A DNA stretch of 55,979 nucleotides, from the IMG/VR virus record IMGVR_UViG_3300020385_000019, positions 1 to 55,979 of that record; one strand, given 5' to 3'. Shown here piece after piece: positions 39,583-50,668 of this stretch; within the stretch, counting starts at the first letter, position 1, and each line of letters begins with the position of its first letter. This stretch comes from a virus (taxonomy: Duplodnaviria > Caudoviricetes). The position numbers were made by a program, and so were the translations under genes. The notes below the pieces were generated by a model. That model saw only the letters and a list, made by a program, of their open reading frames with translations, made no database searches and had not been told where the DNA came from.

Positions 39583-40139
39583 GCTACGTCACCCATTTTT
39601 ACGTGTATATTTTTAAATATATCGCGCTCCCACTCAGCTATAAGCCTAAGCAACTCCTTTGTTACTTCATCGTGTGCGCTGGTATAGCTTTTATGTCCGA
39701 TACCGATAATTTTACATCGACTGCGGTTTGATATTGGCTTGCGTCCTCGTCCGTGGCACTTAACGCATATATCAGCTTCTAAGTTAGTAGCCTTTTGCCC
39801 CGGTGCTAAGCCGCTCCCATCACATTCACCACATACCGGCTGAACGTGCTCATACACTGCTGACATTACCAGGCCGTTTAATGTGTCTGGCTTTATCTTG
39901 TACTGCCGTATCTTGATAAAAAGCGTTGCATGCATAGTTAGCGAGCGTACAACACGATTAAGTCTTGTTTCCTCACCCGCATAGCGAAAGTAAGCCCAAT
40001 TGGTTTGGCACTGCGGTAAACCTGCTAAAGCATGTGCCGCCGTCCGCCAATCAATAACGTCTTGCCCACCACCACCAAACGTACCAGTGAGATTTAGCGT
40101 TTTAGTTGTAAGCTTTGCAAGTAGCTTTATTGGTTGCAT
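39579..40139 (-). CDS. Late antiterminator Q-like protein
   Basis: Two CxxCxGxG zinc motifs (CGECDGSG, CVKCHGRG); position before the lysis cassette. Confidence 0.75.
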   Translation of the reverse strand: MQPIKLLAKLTTKTLNLTGTFGGGGQDVIDWRTAAHALAGLPQCQTNWAYFRYAGEETRLNRVVRSLTMHATLFIKIRQYKIKPDTLNGLVMSAVYEHVQPVCGECDGSGLAPGQKATNLEADICVKCHGRGRKPISNRSRCKIIGIGHKSYTSAHDEVTKELLRLIAEWERDIFKNIHVKMGDVA

Positions 40140-40140
40140 A

Positions 40141-40335
40141 TTATCTCACTCCCATACGTTTAAATATAGCGGTAACTTCTCTATGTGCTGCTAGCTCTTC
40201 ATCTGTCGCAACTGGGGGCGTTGCTGTTAAACACGGCCAAGACAAATCAAACGTTTTAATCAAACCCTGCTTTATCATCCAGCCATAAATATGCTGCTCT
40301 TGCGTCATTTTTAGTTTTAACGGCTCATCATCCAT
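40141..40335 (-). CDS. Hypothetical protein (probable start MDDEPL)
   Basis: Coupled between neighbouring genes. Confidence 0.5.
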   Translation of the reverse strand: MDDEPLKLKMTQEQHIYGWMIKQGLIKTFDLSWPCLTATPPVATDEELAAHREVTAIFKRMGVR

Positions 40336-40768
40336 AAAGCGCCACCAAAGCGGCATCGCGCTTATCTTCGTTGCTTCTACCCTTCCAGCCTGTGATCTGG
40401 TTAAAGTATTTGTCGCTGCTTTTTGCCATGCGCTTAACTGAGCCCTTTAGCGGTGTAACTAACTTCACTTTATAGCCCTGACTCTCTAGCACTTGCTGTA
40501 TTAGCGAGCCTGTCGCTTTACACTTGCCTACGTCCTGGCAAATTTTTTCACGTACAGCGCGTTTGTTTTTAACCTTGGCGCCAAAAAGTGGCTTTATCGC
40601 GCTTGGGTTTTCAAGCTTTATCAATACTTCTTCTTTTGGACCCGCCGCCGCTATGTACTCGAACATATCGACAAAGCTTAGCGACTCAAGATGAATGATT
40701 GTTTTGCCATGGATAACAGCAACACCGCTTTTAACAAAATCTGGATCAATACCAATCGTTATGTTCAT
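40328..40768 (-). CDS. RNase H-fold nuclease, putative RuvC-like Holliday junction resolvase
   Basis: IGIDPD..KSGVA, LE, RSNEDKRDAAL acidic triad pattern. Confidence 0.65.
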   Translation of the reverse strand: MNITIGIDPDFVKSGVAVIHGKTIIHLESLSFVDMFEYIAAAGPKEEVLIKLENPSAIKPLFGAKVKNKRAVREKICQDVGKCKATGSLIQQVLESQGYKVKLVTPLKGSVKRMAKSSDKYFNQITGWKGRSNEDKRDAALVALYG

Positions 40769-41067
40769 TTAGCCACCTGTATCAATTCTTGCTCGAGTAA
40801 AAGCTTTTGCGTTCTAACCATGCCCTCATAGGCATAAACCATTACTTCGTTAGCGCTTCCTTGACGTACTCGTCTATCAATTACATCGTGACAAGCAGAG
40901 CATGCGTAAGTGGCATGTATATCGTCACACTTCTGGCCCATACCAGCACCACCGCCAACGTGAGCAAGTATTACGGTTTCAGAGTTATGGTTGCATACAC
41001 CAGGTATGCGCACTTGGCACTGCTGGCCGCGTGCGCTATTTCTTATTTTTTTACTAATGAGCGACAT
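40765..41067 (-). CDS. DUF1364/YbcO-family putative nuclease
   Basis: SARGQQCQVRIPGVCNHNSETVILAH...CSACHDVID. Confidence 0.8.
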   Translation of the reverse strand: MSLISKKIRNSARGQQCQVRIPGVCNHNSETVILAHVGGGAGMGQKCDDIHATYACSACHDVIDRRVRQGSANEVMVYAYEGMVRTQKLLLEQELIQVAK

Positions 41068-41506
41068 TGTTTGACTCTCCATACATAGCCAAGTGATAAA
41101 GATCGTCCGGCTGTGGCAGTAAAAGCTCTAAATACTCAGCGCAGTATTGCTCTAACCAATTTAGATACTCGCAAAACTCTTTTGTGTTTAGCTTGCGGGT
41201 CCGCTTGCGCACGATGATTGGTTCCTCGTTGCCAGCTTGGATAACCCTCACCCCAAACTTCCTACGCACAAATACTTCGTGTACGTCCTCTGAACTATTC
41301 TCTTGTCCATAGTGCTCGCGAAAATAATCAGCAATTATCTGGTTCCACAGCCAAAGCAAACGGTTTTGAGCTAAAGAGCGCTCAGCTTTGTACTCTTTAA
41401 ACTCAATGACAACGTTTTTGCCTTGCTTTAAAAGCGCCCTTACCGCCTGCCCTATTTGGGGCATGAGGTATTGGGCGTTAGTAGTGGTTACTACTTTCTT
41501 TGCCAT
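41054..41506 (-). CDS. NinB/YbcN-like recombination protein
   Basis: RSLAQNRLLWLW...TRKLNTKEFCEYL..LE. Confidence 0.75.
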   Translation of the reverse strand: MAKKVVTTTNAQYLMPQIGQAVRALLKQGKNVVIEFKEYKAERSLAQNRLLWLWNQIIADYFREHYGQENSSEDVHEVFVRRKFGVRVIQAGNEEPIIVRKRTRKLNTKEFCEYLNWLEQYCAEYLELLLPQPDDLYHLAMYGESNNVAH

Positions 41507-41823
41507 TACGCGGCCTTATCTTGTTTTTTACTTGACTCCGACTTTGCCTCGTTCGCCTGGACTGCCACCGCTTCTTTTTGCGCTTGCACTAAAATGTAAG
41601 CGCCAATTGCTATAAAAGAGTCGCGTTGCTCTCTGTCTAATCCGTTTTTTTCGGCGGAAACAGCAAATAACTTTGTAAAATTGGCAAATACTGCATCGTG
41701 GCTCACCTGTGAACCATCCTGTATAATTTTTGCTGCTTGCGGCTTCGCGTTAGAGATAAAGCCATCGCAAAGAACTTCGCCGGCTGGTGATAACTGAGTA
41801 AGTGTGCTTTTTTTAGTAGTCAT
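41506..41823 (-). CDS. Hypothetical protein
   Basis: AGGAG RBS, coupled in operon. Confidence 0.55.
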   Translation of the reverse strand: MTTKKSTLTQLSPAGEVLCDGFISNAKPQAAKIIQDGSQVSHDAVFANFTKLFAVSAEKNGLDREQRDSFIAIGAYILVQAQKEAVAVQANEAKSESSKKQDKAA

Positions 41824-41832
41824 AATTAGCTC

Positions 41833-42261
41833 CTAAGCTGTTTTTCTTGCGTTTTGATATGTTTTTTCTAGCTGCTCGTTAAGCGAGTAGCCTTGATTTG
41901 CCGGCACCTTCTTTGATGTAAAGTTGCCAGGGCTTGCTTTAACGTCTTGCATACGATTAGCCGCTTGCCTGTTTTTGCTGTGCGACTTATTACGGTTTGC
42001 ATGTTTGTTTTTAGCGGCCTCTTTTTGGTCCTTGATATACTGCGGCACGCTATCAACCCCATGCGCTTTAGCTGCTCTTGCCATTGCGCGGTTAGCTTCT
42101 GCCGTAGCAAAGCCAATCTGTTTTGGTGTTGGGTTACTTATCCCATCAAGTGCTGCCGCCTTAGCTGCTTTTGCGTCAACCAATGCCGCTTGGTAATCGC
42201 TACCTAAAATCTGCTTAAGCGCACGAATAAACTCTTTTTGGTCCTGTTCGTATGATTTCAT
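41833..42261 (-). CDS. Hypothetical basic protein
   Basis: ATGA overlap with the upstream gene. Confidence 0.55.
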   Translation of the reverse strand: MKSYEQDQKEFIRALKQILGSDYQAALVDAKAAKAAALDGISNPTPKQIGFATAEANRAMARAAKAHGVDSVPQYIKDQKEAAKNKHANRNKSHSKNRQAANRMQDVKASPGNFTSKKVPANQGYSLNEQLEKTYQNARKTA

Positions 42262-42737
42262 CGCCCTGATCTCCGTTTTAGTTGCTCACGCAAAGCTGTA
42301 AGTTTTTGCTCTGTACTTTCGCTGCGCGGTCCTTTTGCAAGCTGCGGTAACAAAAAATCGCGATTAATTTCTTTGTGTGCTGCATGCTGCTTAGGCTTTT
42401 GACAAAGCGACAAAAGTTTAGGGATTGACGGTGGATGCTCTGCCCCACTCTCAAGCAATTTAATGCTCGCGGCGGCAACATCATCGGGGCTTTTAAACTT
42501 TTCAGTGAGCAAACCAAGTAAGTATTTAAAATCATCACTCCCCAGCCCCCCATGTTCCCGCGTCCACCGGCCCGTAAACATTTGGTCCAGACGAGTCCAC
42601 AGGGCCACTACCGCTTTCTCTAGGTCCGGCGAGTCCGCGTGATTCCAAGTACGCTTGTGCGTCGCTGTACCGGGTATTAGGATTCGACCGCAATTGTCGA
42701 TGTGATTGGCTTGTAAGATTGTGCTGACTGCTTTCAT
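42258..42737 (-). CDS. Replication protein P-like (helicase loader position)
   Basis: LWTRLDQMFTGRWTREHG...HPPSIPKLLSLC; overlaps the end of the initiator gene. Confidence 0.6.
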   Translation of the reverse strand: MKAVSTILQANHIDNCGRILIPGTATHKRTWNHADSPDLEKAVVALWTRLDQMFTGRWTREHGGLGSDDFKYLLGLLTEKFKSPDDVAAASIKLLESGAEHPPSIPKLLSLCQKPKQHAAHKEINRDFLLPQLAKGPRSESTEQKLTALREQLKRRSGR

Positions 42738-43632
42738 GGTTTGCCCCCGTTGTGTATTCATCGTTCCAGCGCTCTTGATTCAAAAAAGTGGCCGGCATCG
42801 GGATAAATTGCCCGCTGTCTTTGGTCCACTGCGGATCGTCAAGTTTGCGTTTTTCAACATGGCTAATAATTTCGCCAACCAAGGTTTTAAATTCATCAGG
42901 CTTGGTTTTGAATTTTGCTGCGATTTTTTCAAACGCCTTGCGACCAGTGGGTTTTGATTTTTTGCTTGGGTACGATTTCCAAAACGTATCAAACAACGCA
43001 GTCACCCCCTGGGGGGTTAGGGGGGTTATTAGATCTTTATTATTAATATCATTCTTATTTAGTGGGTCACTTCGTGGGTCACTTCGTGATTCAGCGCGTG
43101 GGTCGCAACTACTCGCAACACCTTTGTTTTCGCGGCTTTCGCGTGGGTCATTACGTGGGTCATTGCGTGGGTCATTACGTGGGTCGCTTTTTTGGTTAAA
43201 TTTTGAGTAATTTGGCATAGTAATTACAGTACATTGCGTCACCGTTTTACCAATAGATTTACGTGTTAAAAAACCATCTTTCTCAAGTTTAACTAACGCT
43301 CTTTTTGTCGCTGTATAAGCTGAATCCTCAGTTTTATACAGTGAGTTTATAGCCGCTTTAGCCGCAAGCTCTCTAACGGTCGTCACAAACTGCCCAGCGC
43401 TTAATTTAAGCCTGTTGCTGCGGTACTCAATACTTATCGCCTTAAACGCCGCGTTACGTATTAAATACTGCGCTATAAGCATGCACACGCCGTCACTACT
43501 CCACGGTTGCTGATCAATGCTTCTGTACGTACTAGCAAAGCCGCCTTTGTCGCTCATAAACTTTCGCCGCTCTTTTTCGTTCAATCCCCCCTCTTTGCCA
43601 GGGAACTTGTAAACTTCTGCTAAATTGGTCAT
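42535..43632 (-). CDS. Replication initiator (O-like)
   Basis: wHTH-like N-terminus (GQFVTTVRELA), internal iteron-coded DPRN repeats, FDTFWKSYP.K and FIPMPATFLNQERW. Confidence 0.85.
   Translation of the reverse strand: MTNLAEVYKFPGKEGGLNEKERRKFMSDKGGFASTYRSIDQQPWSSDGVCMLIAQYLIRNAAFKAISIEYRSNRLKLSAGQFVTTVRELAAKAAINSLYKTEDSAYTATKRALVKLEKDGFLTRKSIGKTVTQCTVITMPNYSKFNQKSDPRNDPRNDPRNDPRESRENKGVASSCDPRAESRSDPRSDPLNKNDINNKDLITPLTPQGVTALFDTFWKSYPSKKSKPTGRKAFEKIAAKFKTKPDEFKTLVGEIISHVEKRKLDDPQWTKDSGQFIPMPATFLNQERWNDEYTTGANHESSQHNLTSQSHRQLRSNPNTRYSDAQAYLESRGLAGPRESGSGPVDSSGPNVYGPVDAGTWGAGE
43027..43190. promoter_or_regulatory. Phage replication origin: iterons plus AT-rich tract
   Basis: GTGGGTC at 43062, 43074, 43098, 43143, 43155, 43167, 43179 (12-bp period; degenerate copy at 43086); AT-rich 43027-43061. 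Confidence 0.8.
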
Positions 43633-43691
43633 AATTACCTCGTTGAATTGAACCCCGCTATCGTGCCCTCTAAGCTGATGCGGGTTTTGTT

Positions 43692-44109
43692 TTACCTGCG
43701 AGTTACATCAGCCTTTGCTGTAACTCGCGCCTTAATTCTTTTTTCTAGAAAATTGAGCGCAAACATTAAAAACGCGTATAGAAATTCAATAAAATAAAGG
43801 GATTCTCTAATGCGCTGGTTTTCTAGGCTTAAACTAAAAAATCCCATAACAAGAAAAATAAGAACCCAATACTTCAAGTTGATACGCCATAAAAAATTCA
43901 AGCTCGCTGTCATGTTTGAAAACTCCTGCATACTGCTGTTTTTAACGCCTGCTGCCATCTATGGCGCCCACATAAAAGCTGCATCTATATCTGCCAATAC
44001 CGAGCTAGTGTTTCTTGTTTATGCTGCATCGCTATTCATCCCATTAAACTTTTTAGTAAACTGCTACTACGGGTATAAAAGGTTAAAAACACGCTTTGAA
44101 CGATATTAA
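43692..44109. other. Ambiguous overlapping antisense ORFs (43692-43958 minus; 43810-44109 plus), both hydrophobic
   Basis: ORF track; the coding strand cannot be decided by eye. Confidence 0.35.
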
Positions 44110-44319
44110 TTAACGCCTAAACTGCTTTCGTTTGATTTCTTGCATTTCTGCACAACCAATACATAAATTGGTATTCACTGCCTTGCGGCGTTCTTCTGGT
44201 ATTTCGTTACCGCATTCAATGCAATCGTCTGTAGGCTCAACGTCTTGTTGTTTTAAATTGGCAATTTGCCGCGCTTGTTCGCGCTCTATTTCTATTTGTG
44301 CACTATCTGCTGTATCCAT
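44110..44319 (-). CDS. TraR/DksA-family C4 zinc-finger protein
   Basis: MDTADSAQ N-terminus; CIECGNEIPEERR...CIGC. Confidence 0.88.
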   Translation of the reverse strand: MDTADSAQIEIEREQARQIANLKQQDVEPTDDCIECGNEIPEERRKAVNTNLCIGCAEMQEIKRKQFRR

Positions 44320-44341
44320 AAACAAAACCTAAAATTAAAAC

Positions 44342-44409
44342 TGATTAAAAAGCGCCCTTTTGTCTGCTAGCATGCAAGTGCGAATTACTAAACCAACAAA
44401 CAAAAGGAC
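44342..44409. repeat. 68-bp structured element, copy 1
   Basis: 63/68 identical to 45174-45241; contains TGcTAGCAT and AAGGA. Confidence 0.85.
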
Positions 44410-44415
44410 AACAAC

Positions 44416-44739
44416 ATGAAATTCGATATTTCTTCTTTCAATGAAATTGCAAAGCCACTTTTAAATACCCTTGCAGAGCAATTTCCATTGCCACTTCAGA
44501 TCGATACAAAAAGATACGAAGTGCTTAATTTGGAACTCAAAACCGAGACCGAATTATTAAAAGCAACGCTTCACTTTTTAGTTCAAAATAATTACCTCTC
44601 CGTTCAAGTTCCAACATCAGGAGGAGTAATAGTTGATCACTACCTAACATCAAAAGGCTTAGCCCTACTTAACATCAACCTTGAAACAGAGTTCAACAAA
44701 ACCTCTTCTGTTTACGAGCAAGGCAAAGTGGGTTGCTAA
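44416..44739 (+). CDS. Moron, possible winged-helix protein
   Basis: RBS inside the 68-bp element; LHFLVQNNYL...YLTSKGLALL pattern. Confidence 0.65.
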   Translation: MKFDISSFNEIAKPLLNTLAEQFPLPLQIDTKRYEVLNLELKTETELLKATLHFLVQNNYLSVQVPTSGGVIVDHYLTSKGLALLNINLETEFNKTSSVYEQGKVGC

Positions 44740-44751
44740 CTCCCCACCCAT

Positions 44752-45153
44752 TTACCGGCTTACGAATCCTTTTTGTAAGCCTTCCACATAATTGGCAACA
44801 TCAAGAACAAACCCATCACGCGCGCAACCATGAAAACCTAACTCATCTGCCTTTTGGCTTATCATCTCGGCTAAAGCCTCTGCCGCGTTGTAATATTTGT
44901 TAACGCTGTCTCTTTTTTGCTCAGCTGATAAGCGAACTTCATCATTAGCTTTAGGTAAATCACCCTCGCTATACAAAGGCTTGATTTGCTCAGCATCAGC
45001 TAATGAGCAAACAGCTTTACCGTTACAATAAAAGCCAGATCCTTCGTCTGTATCTTCAATAAGCGCCGCTACAAAAACGCCATAACAGGTGTTCCCACCA
45101 AATGAAAACGAATAAAACTTGCCATCAACCAGATTTAAATTGTTATCGCTCAT
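44752..45153 (-). CDS. Hypothetical protein
   Basis: AAGGCGG RBS-like, same strand as the early-right operon. Confidence 0.55.
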   Translation of the reverse strand: MSDNNLNLVDGKFYSFSFGGNTCYGVFVAALIEDTDEGSGFYCNGKAVCSLADAEQIKPLYSEGDLPKANDEVRLSAEQKRDSVNKYYNAAEALAEMISQKADELGFHGCARDGFVLDVANYVEGLQKGFVSR

Positions 45154-45173
45154 ATCAAACCGCCTTCATATAT

Positions 45174-45241
45174 TGATTAAAAAGTGTCCCTTCGTTTGCT
45201 AGCATGCAAGTGCGAATTACTAAACCAACAAACAAAAGGAC
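45174..45241. repeat. 68-bp structured element, copy 2
   Basis: See copy 1. Confidence 0.85.
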
Positions 45242-45246
45242 TAAAC

Positions 45247-45438
45247 ATGTCAAACAACGAACACCTACCGCCCGTGCTCTGCCCTGTGTGCAAAGCAAAA
45301 TTCAATAAACCGCCGAGTTGGTTTCATGACCAATCGGTGTACATTTGCCCCTGTGGGTATGAAATCCCAATAGATAAGACGATCAGGGCGCACTTTGCCG
45401 GACTCGCAAAAGAGATCTCTAAATTCCGCCATTTTTGA
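45247..45438 (+). CDS. Small zinc-ribbon moron protein (63 aa)
   Basis: AAGGA RBS in the 68-bp element; CPVC...CPCG. Confidence 0.6.
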   Translation: MSNNEHLPPVLCPVCKAKFNKPPSWFHDQSVYICPCGYEIPIDKTIRAHFAGLAKEISKFRHF

Positions 45439-45549
45439 TTCAGAAAACTGATCCCATTTAAGCTCTGTCATGAAAATGGGCTCATCAACTAAATGTAACC
45501 AAGGTGGCGGAGTGTCCTCATTGATGTAATTTAAAAGTTCGCCGCTCAT
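45265..45549 (-). CDS. Hypothetical protein overlapping the moron in antisense
   Basis: Starts 1 nt after the cII stop. Confidence 0.4.
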   Translation of the reverse strand: MSGELLNYINEDTPPPWLHLVDEPIFMTELKWDQFSESKMAEFRDLFCESGKVRPDRLIYWDFIPTGANVHRLVMKPTRRFIEFCFAHRAEHGR

Positions 45550-45550
45550 A

Positions 45551-46078
45551 TCACGCCACCTTTAACGATGCAGGATTAACAACAGCCGGTTCATTAGGAT
45601 CAGGCCTAACCATTTGCTCAAGCTCTGCTGTAATATGCAAAACAGCGACTATGGTTTCTAATGCGCGCTTTTGAATACCGTCAAATTCAGTTTGCGTGAT
45701 AATCCCGTCCTCTCTGGCAAGTCTTACTGATTTAGCAAAATCGCCGGCAGCTTCCTGCAAATGCAAAACCTGATCAGCTAACTCCTCGTCAGATAAGCTC
45801 ACTTCTGGTAAATCAATAACCGTTTTACCTTCGCTATAAGCCCAGGCATTTAAAATGCGACAATCTTCAGTTATATGCTGAATGGCAATTGCTTCTTGCA
45901 GTGTTAATACATGCGAATCAATATTTGTATTTAGCTTATTGCTAAGTGTTGTTGGTGACTTAGCCATAGCACGCGCTATATCAGACACATTAAAGTCGCC
46001 CGCAATACTTGCCGCTGCTTCAAGTGGGCATCGAGCGCTTGGTTTTGCGTTTCTCGTACTCTTTTTAGATAAAAGCAT
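45551..46078 (-). CDS. CII-like regulator (186/CP76 family)
   Basis: IARAMAKSPTTLSNKLN...HVLTLQEA; DGIITQTEF..I; follows cro. Confidence 0.8.
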   Translation of the reverse strand: MLLSKKSTRNAKPSARCPLEAAASIAGDFNVSDIARAMAKSPTTLSNKLNTNIDSHVLTLQEAIAIQHITEDCRILNAWAYSEGKTVIDLPEVSLSDEELADQVLHLQEAAGDFAKSVRLAREDGIITQTEFDGIQKRALETIVAVLHITAELEQMVRPDPNEPAVVNPASLKVA

Positions 46079-46089
46079 CTATAGTTCTC

Positions 46090-46302
46090 CTATGCTGCTG
46101 ATTTGGGTTGATCACTTTCATAAAGAGAAAGGTCAACTTTTAGTGCGCCCTTAGTGATCATTTGCAATTCAAATGCACGACCACGCGGGACACGTCCGTC
46201 ATTCGACCAATGAGTTATTGAGCCCTTGGTTAGTGGCGGCGTAAAAGCTTGAGCTAACTTCGACTTCCCACCAAAATATGAAACTGCGTCACTAGTTTTC
46301 AT
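46090..46302 (-). CDS. cro: Cro-like repressor
   Basis: MKTSDAVSYFGGKSKLAQA...W...VPRGRAFELQMITKGALK; divergent from cI. Confidence 0.88.
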   Translation of the reverse strand: MKTSDAVSYFGGKSKLAQAFTPPLTKGSITHWSNDGRVPRGRAFELQMITKGALKVDLSLYESDQPKSAA

Positions 46303-46329
46303 GTGATCCTCCTAATTAATTTAACTGGG

Positions 46330-46403
46330 AGTATAGTTTTATGAACCCTGCGGAGTCAAGACAAATGAACCATTTAAATAGTAAGATATTTAGATAACTA
46401 TAC
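46330..46403. promoter_or_regulatory. OR operators and pR
   Basis: 16-bp sites at 46331, 46355, 46388 resemble the OL sites; minus-strand TTGACT-18-TATACT. Confidence 0.75.
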
Positions 46404-46418
46404 TTTTAGGTTGTAAAT

Positions 46419-47060
46419 ATGACATTTCAAGATCGCTTAAGTGAGCAGATGGCCGCTGCTGACATAAAGGCAGTTGAGATAGCAAGGAAGCTAAAAATAT
46501 CTAAAGGAACAGTTAGCCAGTGGTGTACTGGGCTAAACAAGCCACGTGGCGAGAATGCAGTTAAATTGGCTAAAGCTTTAAGATGTAACGTCTCATGGCT
46601 TATGGAAGGCAAGGGGTCACCTAATAAAAATGTAGAATTAGAGCTAGGCCCCGACTTAAGAGGTCAAGCGCCTTTAATTTCATGGGTGCAAGCAGGTAAA
46701 TGGAAAGAAATAGATATGGAAAGCTTGCACCAAGCAGATACTACGTTTTATCAGCATACCGCCAACGTGAGTGATGAAGCGTTTGCCTTGCGCGTAAAGG
46801 GTGACAGCATGACCAGTCTAACAGGGGGTAAATCCATTCCTGAAGGATCTGTGATAATAGTTGATCCAAATATGCAGGCCGAGCACAGTAAAGTGGTTGT
46901 GGCCATGCTAGACGACAGTGAAGAAGCCACACTAAAGCAGCTTGTTATAGATGGCGGAGCAAAGTATTTAAAACCATTTAATAACAGCTACCCCACTATG
47001 CCAATTAACGGTAACTGCACTATCATTGGCGTAGTTAAACAGGTGATACAGGATTTTTAA
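46419..47060 (+). CDS. cI: CI repressor (HTH plus S24 autopeptidase)
   Basis: HTH; VQAG cleavage site, VKGDSM serine, ATLKQL lysine. Confidence 0.93.
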   Translation: MTFQDRLSEQMAAADIKAVEIARKLKISKGTVSQWCTGLNKPRGENAVKLAKALRCNVSWLMEGKGSPNKNVELELGPDLRGQAPLISWVQAGKWKEIDMESLHQADTTFYQHTANVSDEAFALRVKGDSMTSLTGGKSIPEGSVIIVDPNMQAEHSKVVVAMLDDSEEATLKQLVIDGGAKYLKPFNNSYPTMPINGNCTIIGVVKQVIQDF

Positions 47061-47077
47061 TATAAGGATATCTAGTA

Positions 47078-47461
47078 ATGTTTAGTTTTTTCAAAAAGAA
47101 AGAAAACTCAAACCGCACAGCTTTCTGCCAAAAGTTCGATAGAGCTGTCAAGGAACTTCACGCTGCTGATCATAATATACAAGTAGCTGTTGGCTCGGCC
47201 ATAAACATGGCAGACGCTATTTTTCAGAAATCGTATGAAACACCTCAAAACTTTCGGAATGCAGCAAGCTCAGAACAGCTCGCATACATTGACAAGCTTA
47301 CGGTGGTTGAGGATGAGTTGCGCAATAAGCAAGGGGATCACTATGCGGCTCTTGGTTTTAGTTTGTACAAAATGTGGCTTGGGGTTATAGCTTCCAAAGA
47401 CAAAGAACTGTTTGATAGGTTTTACTCTGAGATTGCATATTTTAGCAATAAAGGGGTTTAA
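47078..47461 (+). CDS. Hypothetical protein downstream of cI (rex-like position)
   Basis: AAGGA RBS, 17 nt after cI. Confidence 0.6.
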   Translation: MFSFFKKKENSNRTAFCQKFDRAVKELHAADHNIQVAVGSAINMADAIFQKSYETPQNFRNAASSEQLAYIDKLTVVEDELRNKQGDHYAALGFSLYKMWLGVIASKDKELFDRFYSEIAYFSNKGV

Positions 47462-47552
47462 TTTTATAAAATTTGGGAACAAGTTAAACTGCTAATTGTT
47501 CCCAGTACACTCTAAGCGCCGGTAACCCTTATCTGGGTTGCGAAAATATTAG

Positions 47553-47981
47553 TTAATAACAATTTCCTAGTGAGTCACAAATAACCGTTTTAATCTTTCC
47601 TGTATCCGCATTGTAAGAGTCATGTGTTGTGTTGCCTGAAGAATCGGTAAAGCTATTCCAAGTGCTACCATTACTGCTAGACCCAAATGTCTGGCTACTA
47701 CCACCTAAATCGTAAGTACTCGAGTTCCAGTAAGCACCCTTGCTACTAGATCCAAATGTTTGGCTTGTATTGCCGCTTCTAAACGTGTTACTCCCCCACA
47801 CTGTGCCTGTATTGCTATTGTATCCACTTGTAACTGATGATGTTCCATAATCGGACGTAGAATAACTATTGCCACTATCATAGTCATAGCAGTAAGTTGT
47901 ATCGCCCACAGTTGTACATTGAGCGGAAACCGCAGCTGTAAACGCTATCGATGCCACTAAGGTTAACGATTTTAAAAACAT
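47553..47981 (-). CDS. Secreted Ser/Gly/Thr/Asn-rich protein (start MFLKS)
   Basis: Signal peptide ..VSA; repeated TSG/TFG...G..W.S units; terminal cysteines. Confidence 0.65.
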   Translation of the reverse strand: MFLKSLTLVASIAFTAAVSAQCTTVGDTTYCYDYDSGNSYSTSDYGTSSVTSGYNSNTGTVWGSNTFRSGNTSQTFGSSSKGAYWNSSTYDLGGSSQTFGSSSNGSTWNSFTDSSGNTTHDSYNADTGKIKTVICDSLGNCY

Positions 47982-48094
47982 AATTGCATCCCTTTTCTGA
48001 TTTATTTCCAATCTAAATAATAAACGCTACAGAATATATATCAAGCTGAAACAGGCGCAACTAGAGCTTTTGTCATTTTAAATCAAAATAAAAA

Positions 48095-48170
48095 GTTTAG
48101 TTTTATGAACTTTTTATTTGACAACTTAGTTTAGTTGTATAAACTAAATTCAAAGTTTAGAAAAACGAAC
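48095..48170 (+). promoter_or_regulatory. OL operators and pL
   Basis: GTTTAGTTTTATGAAC (48095), GTTTAGTTGTATAAAC (48129), GTTTAGAAAAACGAAC (48155); TTGACA at 48118. Confidence 0.8.
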
Positions 48171-48185
48171 CTTGAGGTTTTAAAA

Positions 48186-48482
48186 ATGACTATCAACACT
48201 AAAACACACCCAGCGGTCACGCTAGAAATAAAAGGGCTAGTTGCAGCACTGGCTATTGAATCATTCAACTTTCGCGAGAATGTTGCGGTAAACGTAGTCA
48301 CCAACGCGCAAGAGCCGTTTATTAACGTGTATGTGTATATCAATGGCGTATCAGCTGAATCATTCATGATCACGCTAACTGACGATGACGCAGAAGCGCA
48401 ACTTAAACACACACTCGATCAAGTTCTTCACTACAAAAAGCAAGACAAGCTTTTTGGCCAAAATATCAAGTTAGCGAGCTAA
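48186..48482 (+). CDS. Hypothetical early protein (start MTINTK)
   Basis: GAGG RBS; first gene after pL. Confidence 0.6.
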   Translation: MTINTKTHPAVTLEIKGLVAALAIESFNFRENVAVNVVTNAQEPFINVYVYINGVSAESFMITLTDDDAEAQLKHTLDQVLHYKKQDKLFGQNIKLAS

Positions 48483-48486
48483 GACG

Positions 48487-49413
48487 ATGGATATTAAAAA
48501 AATTCAACGCTTATTAGCCGACCCATTTGAAGCGCATGACATTGAATGGCGCGTTCAACAAAGCGGCGTATCTGGCTCAAGCAAGCCGTGGGCAATGGTT
48601 ATTCCTTACATTACTAACCGCGCTATTCAGCAACGACTAGATGATGTGGTGGGTATTGATGGCTGGAAAAACGAATTTAAAGAAGCAACCAGTGGCAAAG
48701 GTTACCTATGTGGTTTAAGTATTCGCTTTGGCGATAGCTGGGTAACTAAATGGGATGGCTCAGAGTACACGCAAGTAGAAGCGTTAAAAGGCGCGCTATC
48801 TGGTGCCATGAAACGCACAGCAGTGCAATTTGGCATTGGTCGTTACTTGTATTCACTTGATACTGAATTTGCAACATGCAACCCAGTTGAGAGCCGCTTT
48901 AAAGCTAATGGTGAGTTTATCAGCATACCACTTAATAAAAGCAACAAAGGTGGTCCGCGCATGAACGCAGAATGGTTCCCGCCCACTTTACCTGATTGGG
49001 CCTTACCCTCTGCCAAGTTTGATAGCTACCTAACCGCCATTGAACAAGCTTCAAGCTTAGAAGCACTGCGCGAGCATTACGAGCAAGCTTATAAGTTTGC
49101 AATGGCTGTTAACCGCATTGATATACGTGATAAAGCCATTGAAATAAAAGACCACAAAAAAGCAGAACTTGAAGCAAAAGCGCAAGAAAACACCCTAGCG
49201 GCTAATCAAAAGTTTATTACCTGGTTAAACACGGCCATTAAAGACCGCATAACCACCGCTGAAAACGAATCAGTATTAAACATGAACCATAAGCACTTAT
49301 TGCAAGAGCTTAAAGGTCATTGTCGAGCCAACAAAGTAGACAGCAGTAACTTTGTAGCTCAAGTAAACAAAGCGCATACAGAGGCGCTTAACAACCTAAG
49401 AAACGGAGTATAA
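48487..49413 (+). CDS. Rad52/Sak-family single-strand annealing protein
   Basis: PF...IEWRVQ, YITNRAIQQRLDDVVG..GW, KWDG, KGALSGAMKRTAVQFGIGRYLY. Confidence 0.88.
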   Translation: MDIKKIQRLLADPFEAHDIEWRVQQSGVSGSSKPWAMVIPYITNRAIQQRLDDVVGIDGWKNEFKEATSGKGYLCGLSIRFGDSWVTKWDGSEYTQVEALKGALSGAMKRTAVQFGIGRYLYSLDTEFATCNPVESRFKANGEFISIPLNKSNKGGPRMNAEWFPPTLPDWALPSAKFDSYLTAIEQASSLEALREHYEQAYKFAMAVNRIDIRDKAIEIKDHKKAELEAKAQENTLAANQKFITWLNTAIKDRITTAENESVLNMNHKHLLQELKGHCRANKVDSSNFVAQVNKAHTEALNNLRNGV

Positions 49414-49417
49414 GAGC

Positions 49418-50668
49418 ATGACTACTAATCAAAACACAGCCACCAACTTGGTAGAAGTTGTTTACCAAGAAGATTTAACCAAGCAAGGGCTTGCTAATTT
49501 ACGCAAGCAATACCCTAAGTCGTTTTCACTTGATATGGCAAAAGACGACGAGTTTAAGCAAGGCCGTAAAATTCGCACCGAACGAAACAAGCTGGTTAAA
49601 TCTATTAACGATCGCCGCATTGGATTTACTAACGAGCTTAAAGCCTACGGTGATGAATTAATTTCAAAAGTAGATGTAATTTACGATCCAATCATTAGCG
49701 CATTTGAAATAGAAGATAAACGCCGCAAAGAAGAAGCCGCACGCATAGCTAAAGAACGTGAAGAGTTTTTGAGTAAGCAGCGCGATGAAATTGCACAAAT
49801 GGGGTACTTTACCGAGCAATGTAAAGGCCAAAACTCACAGTTTATTGCTGACACAATTGAAGCAGTAGACCTGGTAGATACAGAAGCGTTTGACAAAGAG
49901 CTCATACACGAAGCTATCGACACCAAGAAAAACATTCTTGAAGCGCTTAACAACATGTACCAAGCAGCAAAAGCCGCCGAAGCGGTAGAGGCAGAGCGCG
50001 AACAATTACGCATCCAGCAAGAAGCCATTGCACAGCAAGAACGCCTACAAAAACAAGCGCAAGAAATCGAACAGCGCATTAATAATCTGCGCAATGATCC
50101 AATGAACTACTTTGGCAAATCGAGCCAAGAGGTTATGGCGCGCATTCAACAGCTTGAAAACTTTACACCAAGCGAAGAAAAGTTTGGTGATCGCACCAAC
50201 GAAGTAACGCAAGTGCTAGCACAAGTTATCCAGCAATTAACCATGATGCACACGCAGCAATCACAAGTTGAGCAAGCGCAGCAAGCAGCTAATCAAGCAC
50301 AAGCGCAACAAATAGAGCAATTGCAAGCCGACTTAAACACACAGCGCAACGCAGAGCATCAAGCTATTGAAGTTGAGCAAGCACCGGTTGAGCAACAAGA
50401 GCATGAAGCGCTAACCGAAGTAAATCGCATGCTAGACCAAGACGAACCGTTACTTGGTAGCAACTTTAAATCGCCAGTGTTTGAAAGCACAAACGCGCCT
50501 ACAGATTACACGCCGCTGGATATATGGCCGAGCAGCCAGGACCGCGCAGAAAATGACGAGCTAGACCGTGTTTGTAACCAGCTATGCGTAGCTGAATGTC
50601 ATATCGCAGATCAGAACGTTCTTATAAAAGATTTAGAGCAGCGACTAAACAAAGCGCTAGCAGCATAA
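49418..50668 (+). CDS. Coiled-coil hypothetical protein
   Basis: 416 aa, Q/E/A-rich. Confidence 0.65.
   Translation: MTTNQNTATNLVEVVYQEDLTKQGLANLRKQYPKSFSLDMAKDDEFKQGRKIRTERNKLVKSINDRRIGFTNELKAYGDELISKVDVIYDPIISAFEIEDKRRKEEAARIAKEREEFLSKQRDEIAQMGYFTEQCKGQNSQFIADTIEAVDLVDTEAFDKELIHEAIDTKKNILEALNNMYQAAKAAEAVEAEREQLRIQQEAIAQQERLQKQAQEIEQRINNLRNDPMNYFGKSSQEVMARIQQLENFTPSEEKFGDRTNEVTQVLAQVIQQLTMMHTQQSQVEQAQQAANQAQAQQIEQLQADLNTQRNAEHQAIEVEQAPVEQQEHEALTEVNRMLDQDEPLLGSNFKSPVFESTNAPTDYTPLDIWPSSQDRAENDELDRVCNQLCVAECHIADQNVLIKDLEQRLNKALAA

Follow-up and report, generated by a model that had tools for sequence, protein, structure and literature searches.

A conserved composite element ahead of small backward-facing genes in lambda-like Pseudoalteromonas prophages

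How small extra genes can be carried backwards inside an operon on which a temperate phage depends is the question raised by the IMG/VR virus record IMGVR_UViG_3300020385_000019, whose complete sequence of 55,979 nt is the stretch analysed here (the window). The early operon of this virus is read on the minus strand in the order cro, cII, orf94, [element 2], orf133, [element 1], traR, O. Two plus-strand open reading frames (ORFs) of 63 and 107 aa, named here cargo B and cargo A, are oriented in the opposite direction, and each is preceded by one copy of a 68-nt element (44342-44409 and 45174-45241). An earlier note, made from the sequence alone, had described this duplication with its five C/T differences, and a repeat search of the window confirmed it as a single two-copy repeat family of 93% identity. 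The copies differ at element positions 12, 14, 17, 20 and 23, every difference being C/T; their rightmost 44 nt are the same, against a chance expectation of 0.00 (100 shuffles), and the entire virus record holds no other copy. The element is a real, conserved and lineage-restricted composite regulatory cassette. On balance, we lean towards seeing it as the conserved leader of small accessory gene cassettes, which would combine a promoter and leader on one strand, an RNA hairpin on the operon strand, and a substrate for recombination.

A covariance model, the check proposed in the earlier note, was built from six variants and recovered the element in 11 of the 20 IMG/VR loci retrieved through CII. 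The other nine cII-related loci gave no model match even with the filters off; in the eight of them that were inspected, cII abuts traR and there is no opposite-strand ORF. Because cII abuts traR in these element-less relatives, the window carries a two-cassette insertion of 1.2 kb (44325-45549). Exact and degenerate patterns located the element in 11 IMG/VR contigs, in two species genomes (both Pseudoalteromonas) and in marine metagenome contigs, and the model matched 6 of 140 Pseudoalteromonas genomes. Copies number one to three per genome. The element is not a host repeat; two host genomes contain only its prophage copies, one and two, respectively. A looser gapped pattern added no IMG/VR contig, and a retrieval guided by traR returned the same 20 contigs plus three distant ones, with no model match in those three. 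Among 12 metagenome stretches, four (L036, L042, L043, and L047) were dropped as chance matches without arms, at 17.3 bits or less, and L040 was left out of the model search, being seemingly the same record as L006. Rfam release 15, searched at E <= 10, gave three matches in 40000-50000 (E 3.7-9.1), none of them overlapping the element. By blastn against GenBank phages, the element yielded only chance pieces of 20-34 nt (E 0.2-0.7); for the 4.6-kb region, the matches were limited to a cI fragment and to traR/O from a Pseudoalteromonas phage. No description of the element was found in the literature searched.

All 31 model matches with E < 1e-5 lie directly before an ORF of 63-109 aa on the opposite strand to the operon, whose ATG stands 5-8 nt past the ribosome site. 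These matches were drawn from the window and from 11 IMG/VR, 2 genome and 7 metagenome loci, with a small number of duplicate records of one contig among them; the neighbouring genes, tabulated as the earlier note had suggested, fall into three families. Nine sequence classes can be distinguished when weaker matches are included, V1 to V6 being close variants. The window holds V1 (copy 1, 44342-44409, 5' of cargo A, 95.8 bits with the covariance model) and V2 (copy 2, 45174-45241, 5' of cargo B, 99.4 bits). V8 is found in L075 and V9 in L076, where they precede longer ORFs that are relatives of cargo A.

On the cargo strand, the element reads as a promoter followed by a leader. A sigma-70 promoter is predicted for cargo A from sequence reading at 44345-44373 (plus strand; TTAAAA 44345-44350, TG 44365-44366, TAGCAT 44368-44373) and, from sequence reading and the class alignment, one of the same layout for cargo B at 45177-45205. 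The extended -10 (TGc-TAGCAT) occupies 44365-44373 and 45197-45205, and the Shine-Dalgarno motif AAGGA lies at 44404-44408, 7 nt from the ATG of cargo A (44416), and at 45236-45240, 6 nt from the ATG of cargo B (45247). The most conserved block, GCAAGTGCGAAT (44374-44385, plus strand), stands just 3' of the -10 and forms the apical loop on the opposite strand; it is present as such in V1, V7 and V8, and is predicted to contain both the transcription start site and the first transcribed bases. The -10 hexamers of the nine classes (TAGCAT, TAGGAT, TAAGCT, TAATCT and TAATAT) occur at the same alignment columns, so that T-12, A-11 and T-7 are invariant (TAnnnT) and the middle bases vary. The TG before the hexamer is found in most classes, the exceptions by our own reading being V7 and the L009 copy of V5. 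The evidence for the promoter is comparative, coming from sequence and conservation pattern. Taken with the 31 occurrences, all placed before an opposite-strand ORF, the three invariant -10 positions support the proposal of a reusable expression cassette, and the extended -10 and the AAGGA ahead of two unrelated small genes were read in the sequence as previously described.

On the operon strand, the same DNA specifies an RNA hairpin. In copy 1 it spans 44354-44409 (minus strand), with the 5' arm at 44409-44392, the apical region at 44391-44372, the 3' arm at 44371-44354 and a U5 run at 44351-44347; in copy 2 it spans 45186-45241, with the U5 run at 45183-45179. In both window copies the run begins 1-2 nt past the stem, and the 17-nt spacer between TTAAAA and the -10 doubles as the 3' arm. 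The minus-strand RNAs fold at -26.4 and -26.2 kcal/mol (z -4.06 and -4.82), a value that none of 200 shuffles equalled, versus -11.2 and -10.8 kcal/mol for the plus strand (z -0.84 and -0.44), which 38 and 61 of 200 shuffles equalled. The stem and the trailing U5 of the earlier note stand; where it had counted 16 bp, ViennaRNA pairs 18 bp in the outer stem, and adds an inner helix of 4 bp within what had been taken for a loop. Likewise, the four stem differences between the copies do exchange U-A and U.G, as had been noticed, but the argument drawn from them is weak because the opposite arm is G/U-rich, so that a transition keeps the pair at 16 of 18 positions (our own count). As a separate observation, these four differences (element positions 14, 17, 20, and 23; 44355-44364 and 45187-45196) sit exactly 3 nt apart, and at those places each copy has two U.G and two U-A pairs, with equal stability (-26.4 vs -26.2). 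A coding cause of this period was dropped: the synonymous frame is closed by a stop just upstream, lacks a start codon, and is not conserved in V7-V9.

The hairpin is conserved and its arms covary. In the seven variants tested, the operon strand folds at -22 to -28 kcal/mol and the cargo strand always more weakly, at -11 to -20 kcal/mol. Shuffling of the 3' arm only matched the observed energy in 0-4 of 1000 trials in these variants; base composition therefore does not account for the complementarity. In 14 distinct rows, the 18 pairs of the outer helix are formed in 92.2% of cells, compared with 38-56% in slid registers. Seven of these pairs are changed on both sides and five on one side only, and the seven doubly changed pairs compare with a shuffle mean of 1.4 (none of 500 shuffles reached seven). 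By our own reading, a C inserted in V8 pairs with an inserted G. The covariation count, the arm-shuffle control, and the asymmetry between strands uphold the view of a structured RNA on the lytic strand, and structure-preserving variation is found in V7-V9. A run of U5-U6 follows the stem within 1-2 nt in V1, V2, V5, V6, V8 and one V4 context, where it overlaps the A/T-rich -35 region of the opposite strand. A second cargo-A-like gene without an element copy occurs in a Pseudoalteromonas genome (L075:2825-2960); it has an unrelated short stem with U4 on the operon strand, over the complement of the ribosome site, in the same geometry.

The role of the copies as a recombination handle, which had been only a suggestion, is documented by a natural relative. 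The locus L030 matches the window at 43599-44418 (97.6%) and at 45174-46113 (94.9%); both matches overlap on a single element, and L030 is therefore an exact 832-bp deletion between the copies, with loss of orf133 and cargo A. The one element it retains joins the left arm from copy 1 to the cargo from copy 2. The locus L027 stands in the same relation to L026, yet that junction shares only ~9 nt. All eight phages compared share the same base at every one of the 60 columns of 44326-44385, while their flanking traR and cargo genes are 20-95% identical, and the same leader precedes different cargoes. A site of the integron attC type was considered and dropped, the deletion being the expected homologous crossover within the shared 44 nt and no dedicated recombinase lying nearby.

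These observations can be accommodated in a single scheme. The cassettes sit backwards in a lytic operon that is transcribed early (cro-cII-[cassettes]-traR-O) in a group of lambda-like Pseudoalteromonas prophages. The strand of the cargo has a putative sigma-70 promoter (TTAAAA-17-TGn-TAGCAT), which would be followed by a C/A-rich, unstructured leader of ~40 nt and by AAGGA. Because the promoter spacer is complementary to the leader, a pR-type early transcript would form a long, G.U-rich hairpin, located where each cassette ends as the operon is read. The near-identical copies are also the crossover points at which homologous recombination deletes, adds or swaps cassettes, as the natural deletion shows. 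As to the hairpin itself, it may be an attenuator or insulator of terminator-like type, which would mark where the cassette stops on the operon strand, a role that by our own estimate is put forward tentatively. Terminator-like attenuation is ranked first and processing second.

It is important to note that several points weigh against this interpretation. The inner 4-bp helix is unsupported across relatives (62.5% paired). The covariation alignment was fitted to the model, and every doubly changed pair comes from three single diverged classes, V7, V8 and V9. The cargo strand, too, has a fairly stable fold in V6 (-19.9 kcal/mol) and in V7 (-17.1 kcal/mol). V7, V9 and the context of L026, L027, L015, L037, L046 and L074 have no U run or a broken one, and the run may be a by-product, since it coincides with the opposite-strand -35 region; in addition, the apical region of 20-24 nt is long for an intrinsic terminator. 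A strong terminator ahead of traR-O-P would harm the phage unless it were read through, and neither an N-like factor among the genes next to cI nor a nut site in a boxA search of the window was identified, the only weak Q-like match lying far downstream. On the cargo strand, the -35 hexamer is just A/T-rich, with three to four of six matches by our own count. A simple consensus scan made no promoter or terminator call at the element, the hexamers matching at 8 of 12 positions when 9 were required and the loop exceeding the limit of 8 nt (again our own count). The complete identity of the 60 columns could reflect recent exchange instead of selection. Finally, the available public runs (19 listed) are all Logan contigs with small shares of the stretch, which show no transcript start, end or strand, uncovered parts being no evidence. 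RNA-library contigs from four of the runs cover cargo A and bridge element 1, although they are unstranded and may include DNA carry-over. In one RNA-library contig, X3 (record 17), adapter letters abut a V5/V6-type element, with the join 9 nt past the -10 hexamer; this reads as a plus-strand 5' end or as a minus-strand fragment end, and was not counted as evidence.

Some of the same features can be read in favour of other explanations. The hairpin may be a processing or stability element, that is, an RNase III site or a 3' protective stem, which would separate the cargo-antisense part of the early transcript from the traR-O-P message or retro-regulate the upstream genes, with a logic comparable to that of lambda sib/tI. 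The stem of 18-19 bp with its apical extension is long for a terminator, the hairpin is retained in V7, V9 and the L026/L027 context without a U run, and it always stands between the untranslated antisense stretch and the next operon-strand start codon. Against it, most classes have a U5-U6 run directly after the stem, and we hold this role to be somewhat doubtful. A simpler possibility is that only the plus-strand promoter and leader are functional, and that both complementarity and conservation stem from recent spread or gene conversion, leaving the hairpin without a role. The full identity of 44326-44385 next to genes that differ by up to 80% fits recent exchange, transitions between the window copies keep pairing by chance at 16 of 18 positions, as counted above, and the U run coincides with the -35 region. 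This possibility is nonetheless quite improbable: in each of the seven variants the fold is lost in 996 or more of 1000 arm shuffles, and V7-V9 retain the helix through the seven doubly changed pairs and one paired insertion. Moreover, we know of no reason for a promoter spacer to be complementary to its leader.

The inverted repeat could alternatively be the DNA operator of a multimeric regulator, for instance of a self-repressing winged-helix cargo A, and the co-variation of the arms would then correspond to symmetric half-sites. Cargo A has a confident structure model (pLDDT 85.1) with MarR and PadR regulators among its matches, and V8 and V9 also precede relatives of cargo A. However, the arms are complementary without interruption over 15-19 bp and their centres lie ~45 bp apart, and arms so long and so distant are unlike MarR or PadR operators; all mismatches are G.U-compatible on one strand only; the arms are kept in phages that have only cargo B (L027 and L030); and the fold matches are weak, none reaching E <= 0.001. 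An operator is, accordingly, very improbable. Still harder to believe is a nut- or rrn-like antitermination site made up of a boxB-like stem and a boxA. The run after the stem loosely resembles a boxA consensus (9 of 12 by eye), but with that 12-nt consensus and up to two mismatches the window has 13 matches versus 9.6 expected, none at the element or near pR/pL; besides, the run is not kept in three contexts and the genes next to cI gave no N-like family. As the window search was not enriched, the boxA/nut reading was dropped. Control by the immunity repressor was also dropped, the cI-cro operator repeats being unrelated to the element and the element being identical across different cI types.

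A more ambitious version of the favoured scheme, in which the element is a conserved cassette leader, can be formulated, and it is unlikely as a whole. According to it, the element would be a strand-split mobile regulatory module with the promoter and leader on one strand and, on the other, a conditional hairpin acting as a terminator if transcription is unmodified and as a processing site if it is read through. Whether the cargo is silenced or expressed would thereby be tied to the lytic-lysogenic state, and the replication genes would be shielded from the antisense pair; with its convergent gene pair, the module would constitute a recombination-mobile cassette array inside a lambda-type early operon.

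The element has no Rfam match, and in this sense the statement that it is not a named element holds; its concept, by contrast, has a published analogue. The promoter-early stem-loops (PeSLs) of T4-like phages are repeated cassettes of promoter, stem-loop and Shine-Dalgarno sequence that end upstream transcription and mediate modular shuffling, with ~50 copies per lytic T4-like genome preceding small genes of unknown function in variable regions; their stem-loop may sit between or over the -35 and -10 and contains G-T pairs (Arbiol et al., 2010, PMC2839356; Comeau et al., 2014, PMC4122927). The two are alike in being small, repeated intergenic cassettes placed before small genes, in the G.U pairs of the stem, and in the order of sigma-70-like boxes, Shine-Dalgarno sequence and start codon, which here are read from the letters alone and fall below the scan threshold. 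They are also alike in that recombination between copies gives indels or replacements, represented here by the 832-bp deletion of L030 and by the different cargoes on one leader. They differ in that PeSL stem and promoter share a strand, whereas here the promoter strand folds at -11 and the opposite strand at -26 kcal/mol. The opposite strand folds more strongly in all seven variants, and the arms of the hairpin span from the spacer to the ribosome site. The present element, moreover, has one to three copies and belongs to temperate lambda-like prophages (cI, cro, cII, O, and integrase), inside an essential operon, and shares no sequence similarity with PeSLs. It works like a PeSL and is not a member of the PeSL family, as it lacks same-strand termination and the T4-like setting.

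Two further comparisons are useful. The morons of lambdoid phages are extra genes with their own promoter and terminator, often expressed from the prophage. Like them, the cassettes occur in some relatives (11 of 20 related loci) and are cleanly absent from others (nine), and they have a predicted promoter of their own and a stem-loop with a weak U tail after the stop of cargo A. In contrast to morons, they oppose the host operon, each includes a convergent operon-strand gene, and one conserved leader is common to all. Accessory loci are reported to be highly expressed in lysogeny (PMC7067206). A partial resemblance to intrinsic terminators, and to hairpins that are both terminators and processing sites such as lambda tI/sib, lies in the G/C-closed stem and the U5-U6 run within 1-2 nt in most classes; the 18-bp G.U-rich stem, the apical region of 20-24 nt, the missing U run in three contexts, and the location upstream of essential replication genes set the hairpin apart.

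The genes of the cassettes deserve separate description. Cargo A (44416-44739, plus strand, 107 aa) matches phrog_2266 at 2.7e-10 and is predicted to fold as a winged helix; the best matches to its structure model are winged-helix proteins (eS10, MarR, and PadR; TM ~0.5, E 6e-3 or weaker), with nothing at E <= 0.001 in the structural search. Its convergent partner on the operon strand, orf133 (44752-45153, minus strand), has no family in Pfam, PHROG, PADLOC or NCBIfam. A 10-bp stem-loop with a weak U tail (44757-44781, plus strand) lies 3' of the cargo A stop and is kept in relatives, where an A-to-G change pairs on the plus strand only; the cargo transcript may end here. Cargo B (45247-45438, plus strand, 63 aa) has Cys pairs and is zinc-ribbon-like, with sub-threshold Zn-ribbon matches, and orf94 (45265-45549, minus strand) is the operon-strand gene of this second cassette, its 3' part being antisense to cargo B. 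Each cassette likewise includes an operon-strand gene convergent with the cargo. The two cargoes of the window are mutually unrelated, as claimed beforehand; overall, however, the cargoes are of fewer kinds than the start peptides suggest. Of the three families (A, B, and C), A is the commonest and evolves fast, comprising four dissimilar start peptides at 27-78% identity, with F8, F23-P24, T78 and K80 invariant. A profile search with family A found 112 distant relatives at E <= 0.001, and neither the window cargo A nor the 10 of these 112 that were tested yielded a Pfam family. Family B is the 63-aa protein with Cys pairs and family C a Cys-rich protein of 75 aa. Neither cargo A nor cargo B had a tblastn match among GenBank phages, and PADLOC and NCBIfam recognized no family among 10 cassette and neighbouring proteins.

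Several side observations concern these genes. The antisense overlap of orf94 (minus strand) and cargo B (plus strand) extends over 45265-45438, 174 nt, codon for codon. Relative to L004, 18 of 29 substitutions in the non-overlapping part of orf94 fall at its own third codon positions, and 11 of 20 in the overlap fall at third positions of cargo B, with a divergence of 12% in the overlap versus 26% outside; this pattern suggests that orf94 is a genuine gene with its tail overprinted on the strand opposite cargo B. The start regions of orf133 and orf94 (45133-45166 and 45529-45562) are 74% alike and include the ribosome site and a stop-start junction; one of the two is the 3' end of cII, and the upstream border of a cassette may include a copy of the junction at the end of cII. 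Class V7 (L022:6919-6988, L032:7099-7168, and L038:3573-3642) occupies another insertion site, between traR and O, and its cargo, the Cys-rich 75-aa protein, overlaps at its 3' end a convergent operon-strand ORF. A third backward-facing gene of the window may be the plus-strand 99-aa ORF at 43810-44109, which ends where traR ends and has no family in Pfam, PHROG, PADLOC or NCBIfam. Upstream of it are a promoter-like site from the consensus scan (43766-43795) and a strong stem (~43697-43730) followed by a T-rich run on the plus strand, and a minus-strand ORF (43692-43958) competes with it for the same DNA.

The surrounding genes, identified with Pfam/PHROG, agree with the reported orientation of the cargo genes against the cro-cII-O operon: a cI-type repressor on the plus strand (46419-47060), and on the minus strand Cro (46090-46302), CII/CP76 (45551-46078), a DksA/TraR zinc-finger protein (44110-44321) and an O-like initiator with iterons (42535-43632). 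Further downstream are NinB, an HNH protein, a resolvase, the weak Q-like match and lysis genes, and the other arm has Erf, a single-stranded DNA-binding protein (SSB), a methylase and an integrase. Six GTGGGTCA-type iterons with 12-nt spacing lie within the O-like gene (43050-43211) and are likely the replication origin. Next to cI, a minus-strand ORF of 152 aa (47553-48011) opposes the left operon; it is rich in Ser/Thr/Gly/Asn, has a hydrophobic N-terminus, and gave no family in Pfam/PHROG-type, PADLOC and NCBIfam searches. Relatives have different genes at this site, which is a further accessory slot.

If the proposed scheme is correct, it shows a way for temperate phages to insert accessory genes against the direction of an essential early operon while keeping that operon working, by means of one compact sequence that acts differently on each strand. 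The idea of the PeSL would then extend from lytic T4-like phages to lambda-like prophages, with a new geometry. The covariance model would also be a sequence and structure signature with which to find small accessory genes of prophages, which annotation pipelines tend to overlook or to place on the wrong strand. Two by-products are open to testing: the cargo family, winged-helix proteins with more than 100 distant relatives and no Pfam family, and the antisense-overlapping gene pair.

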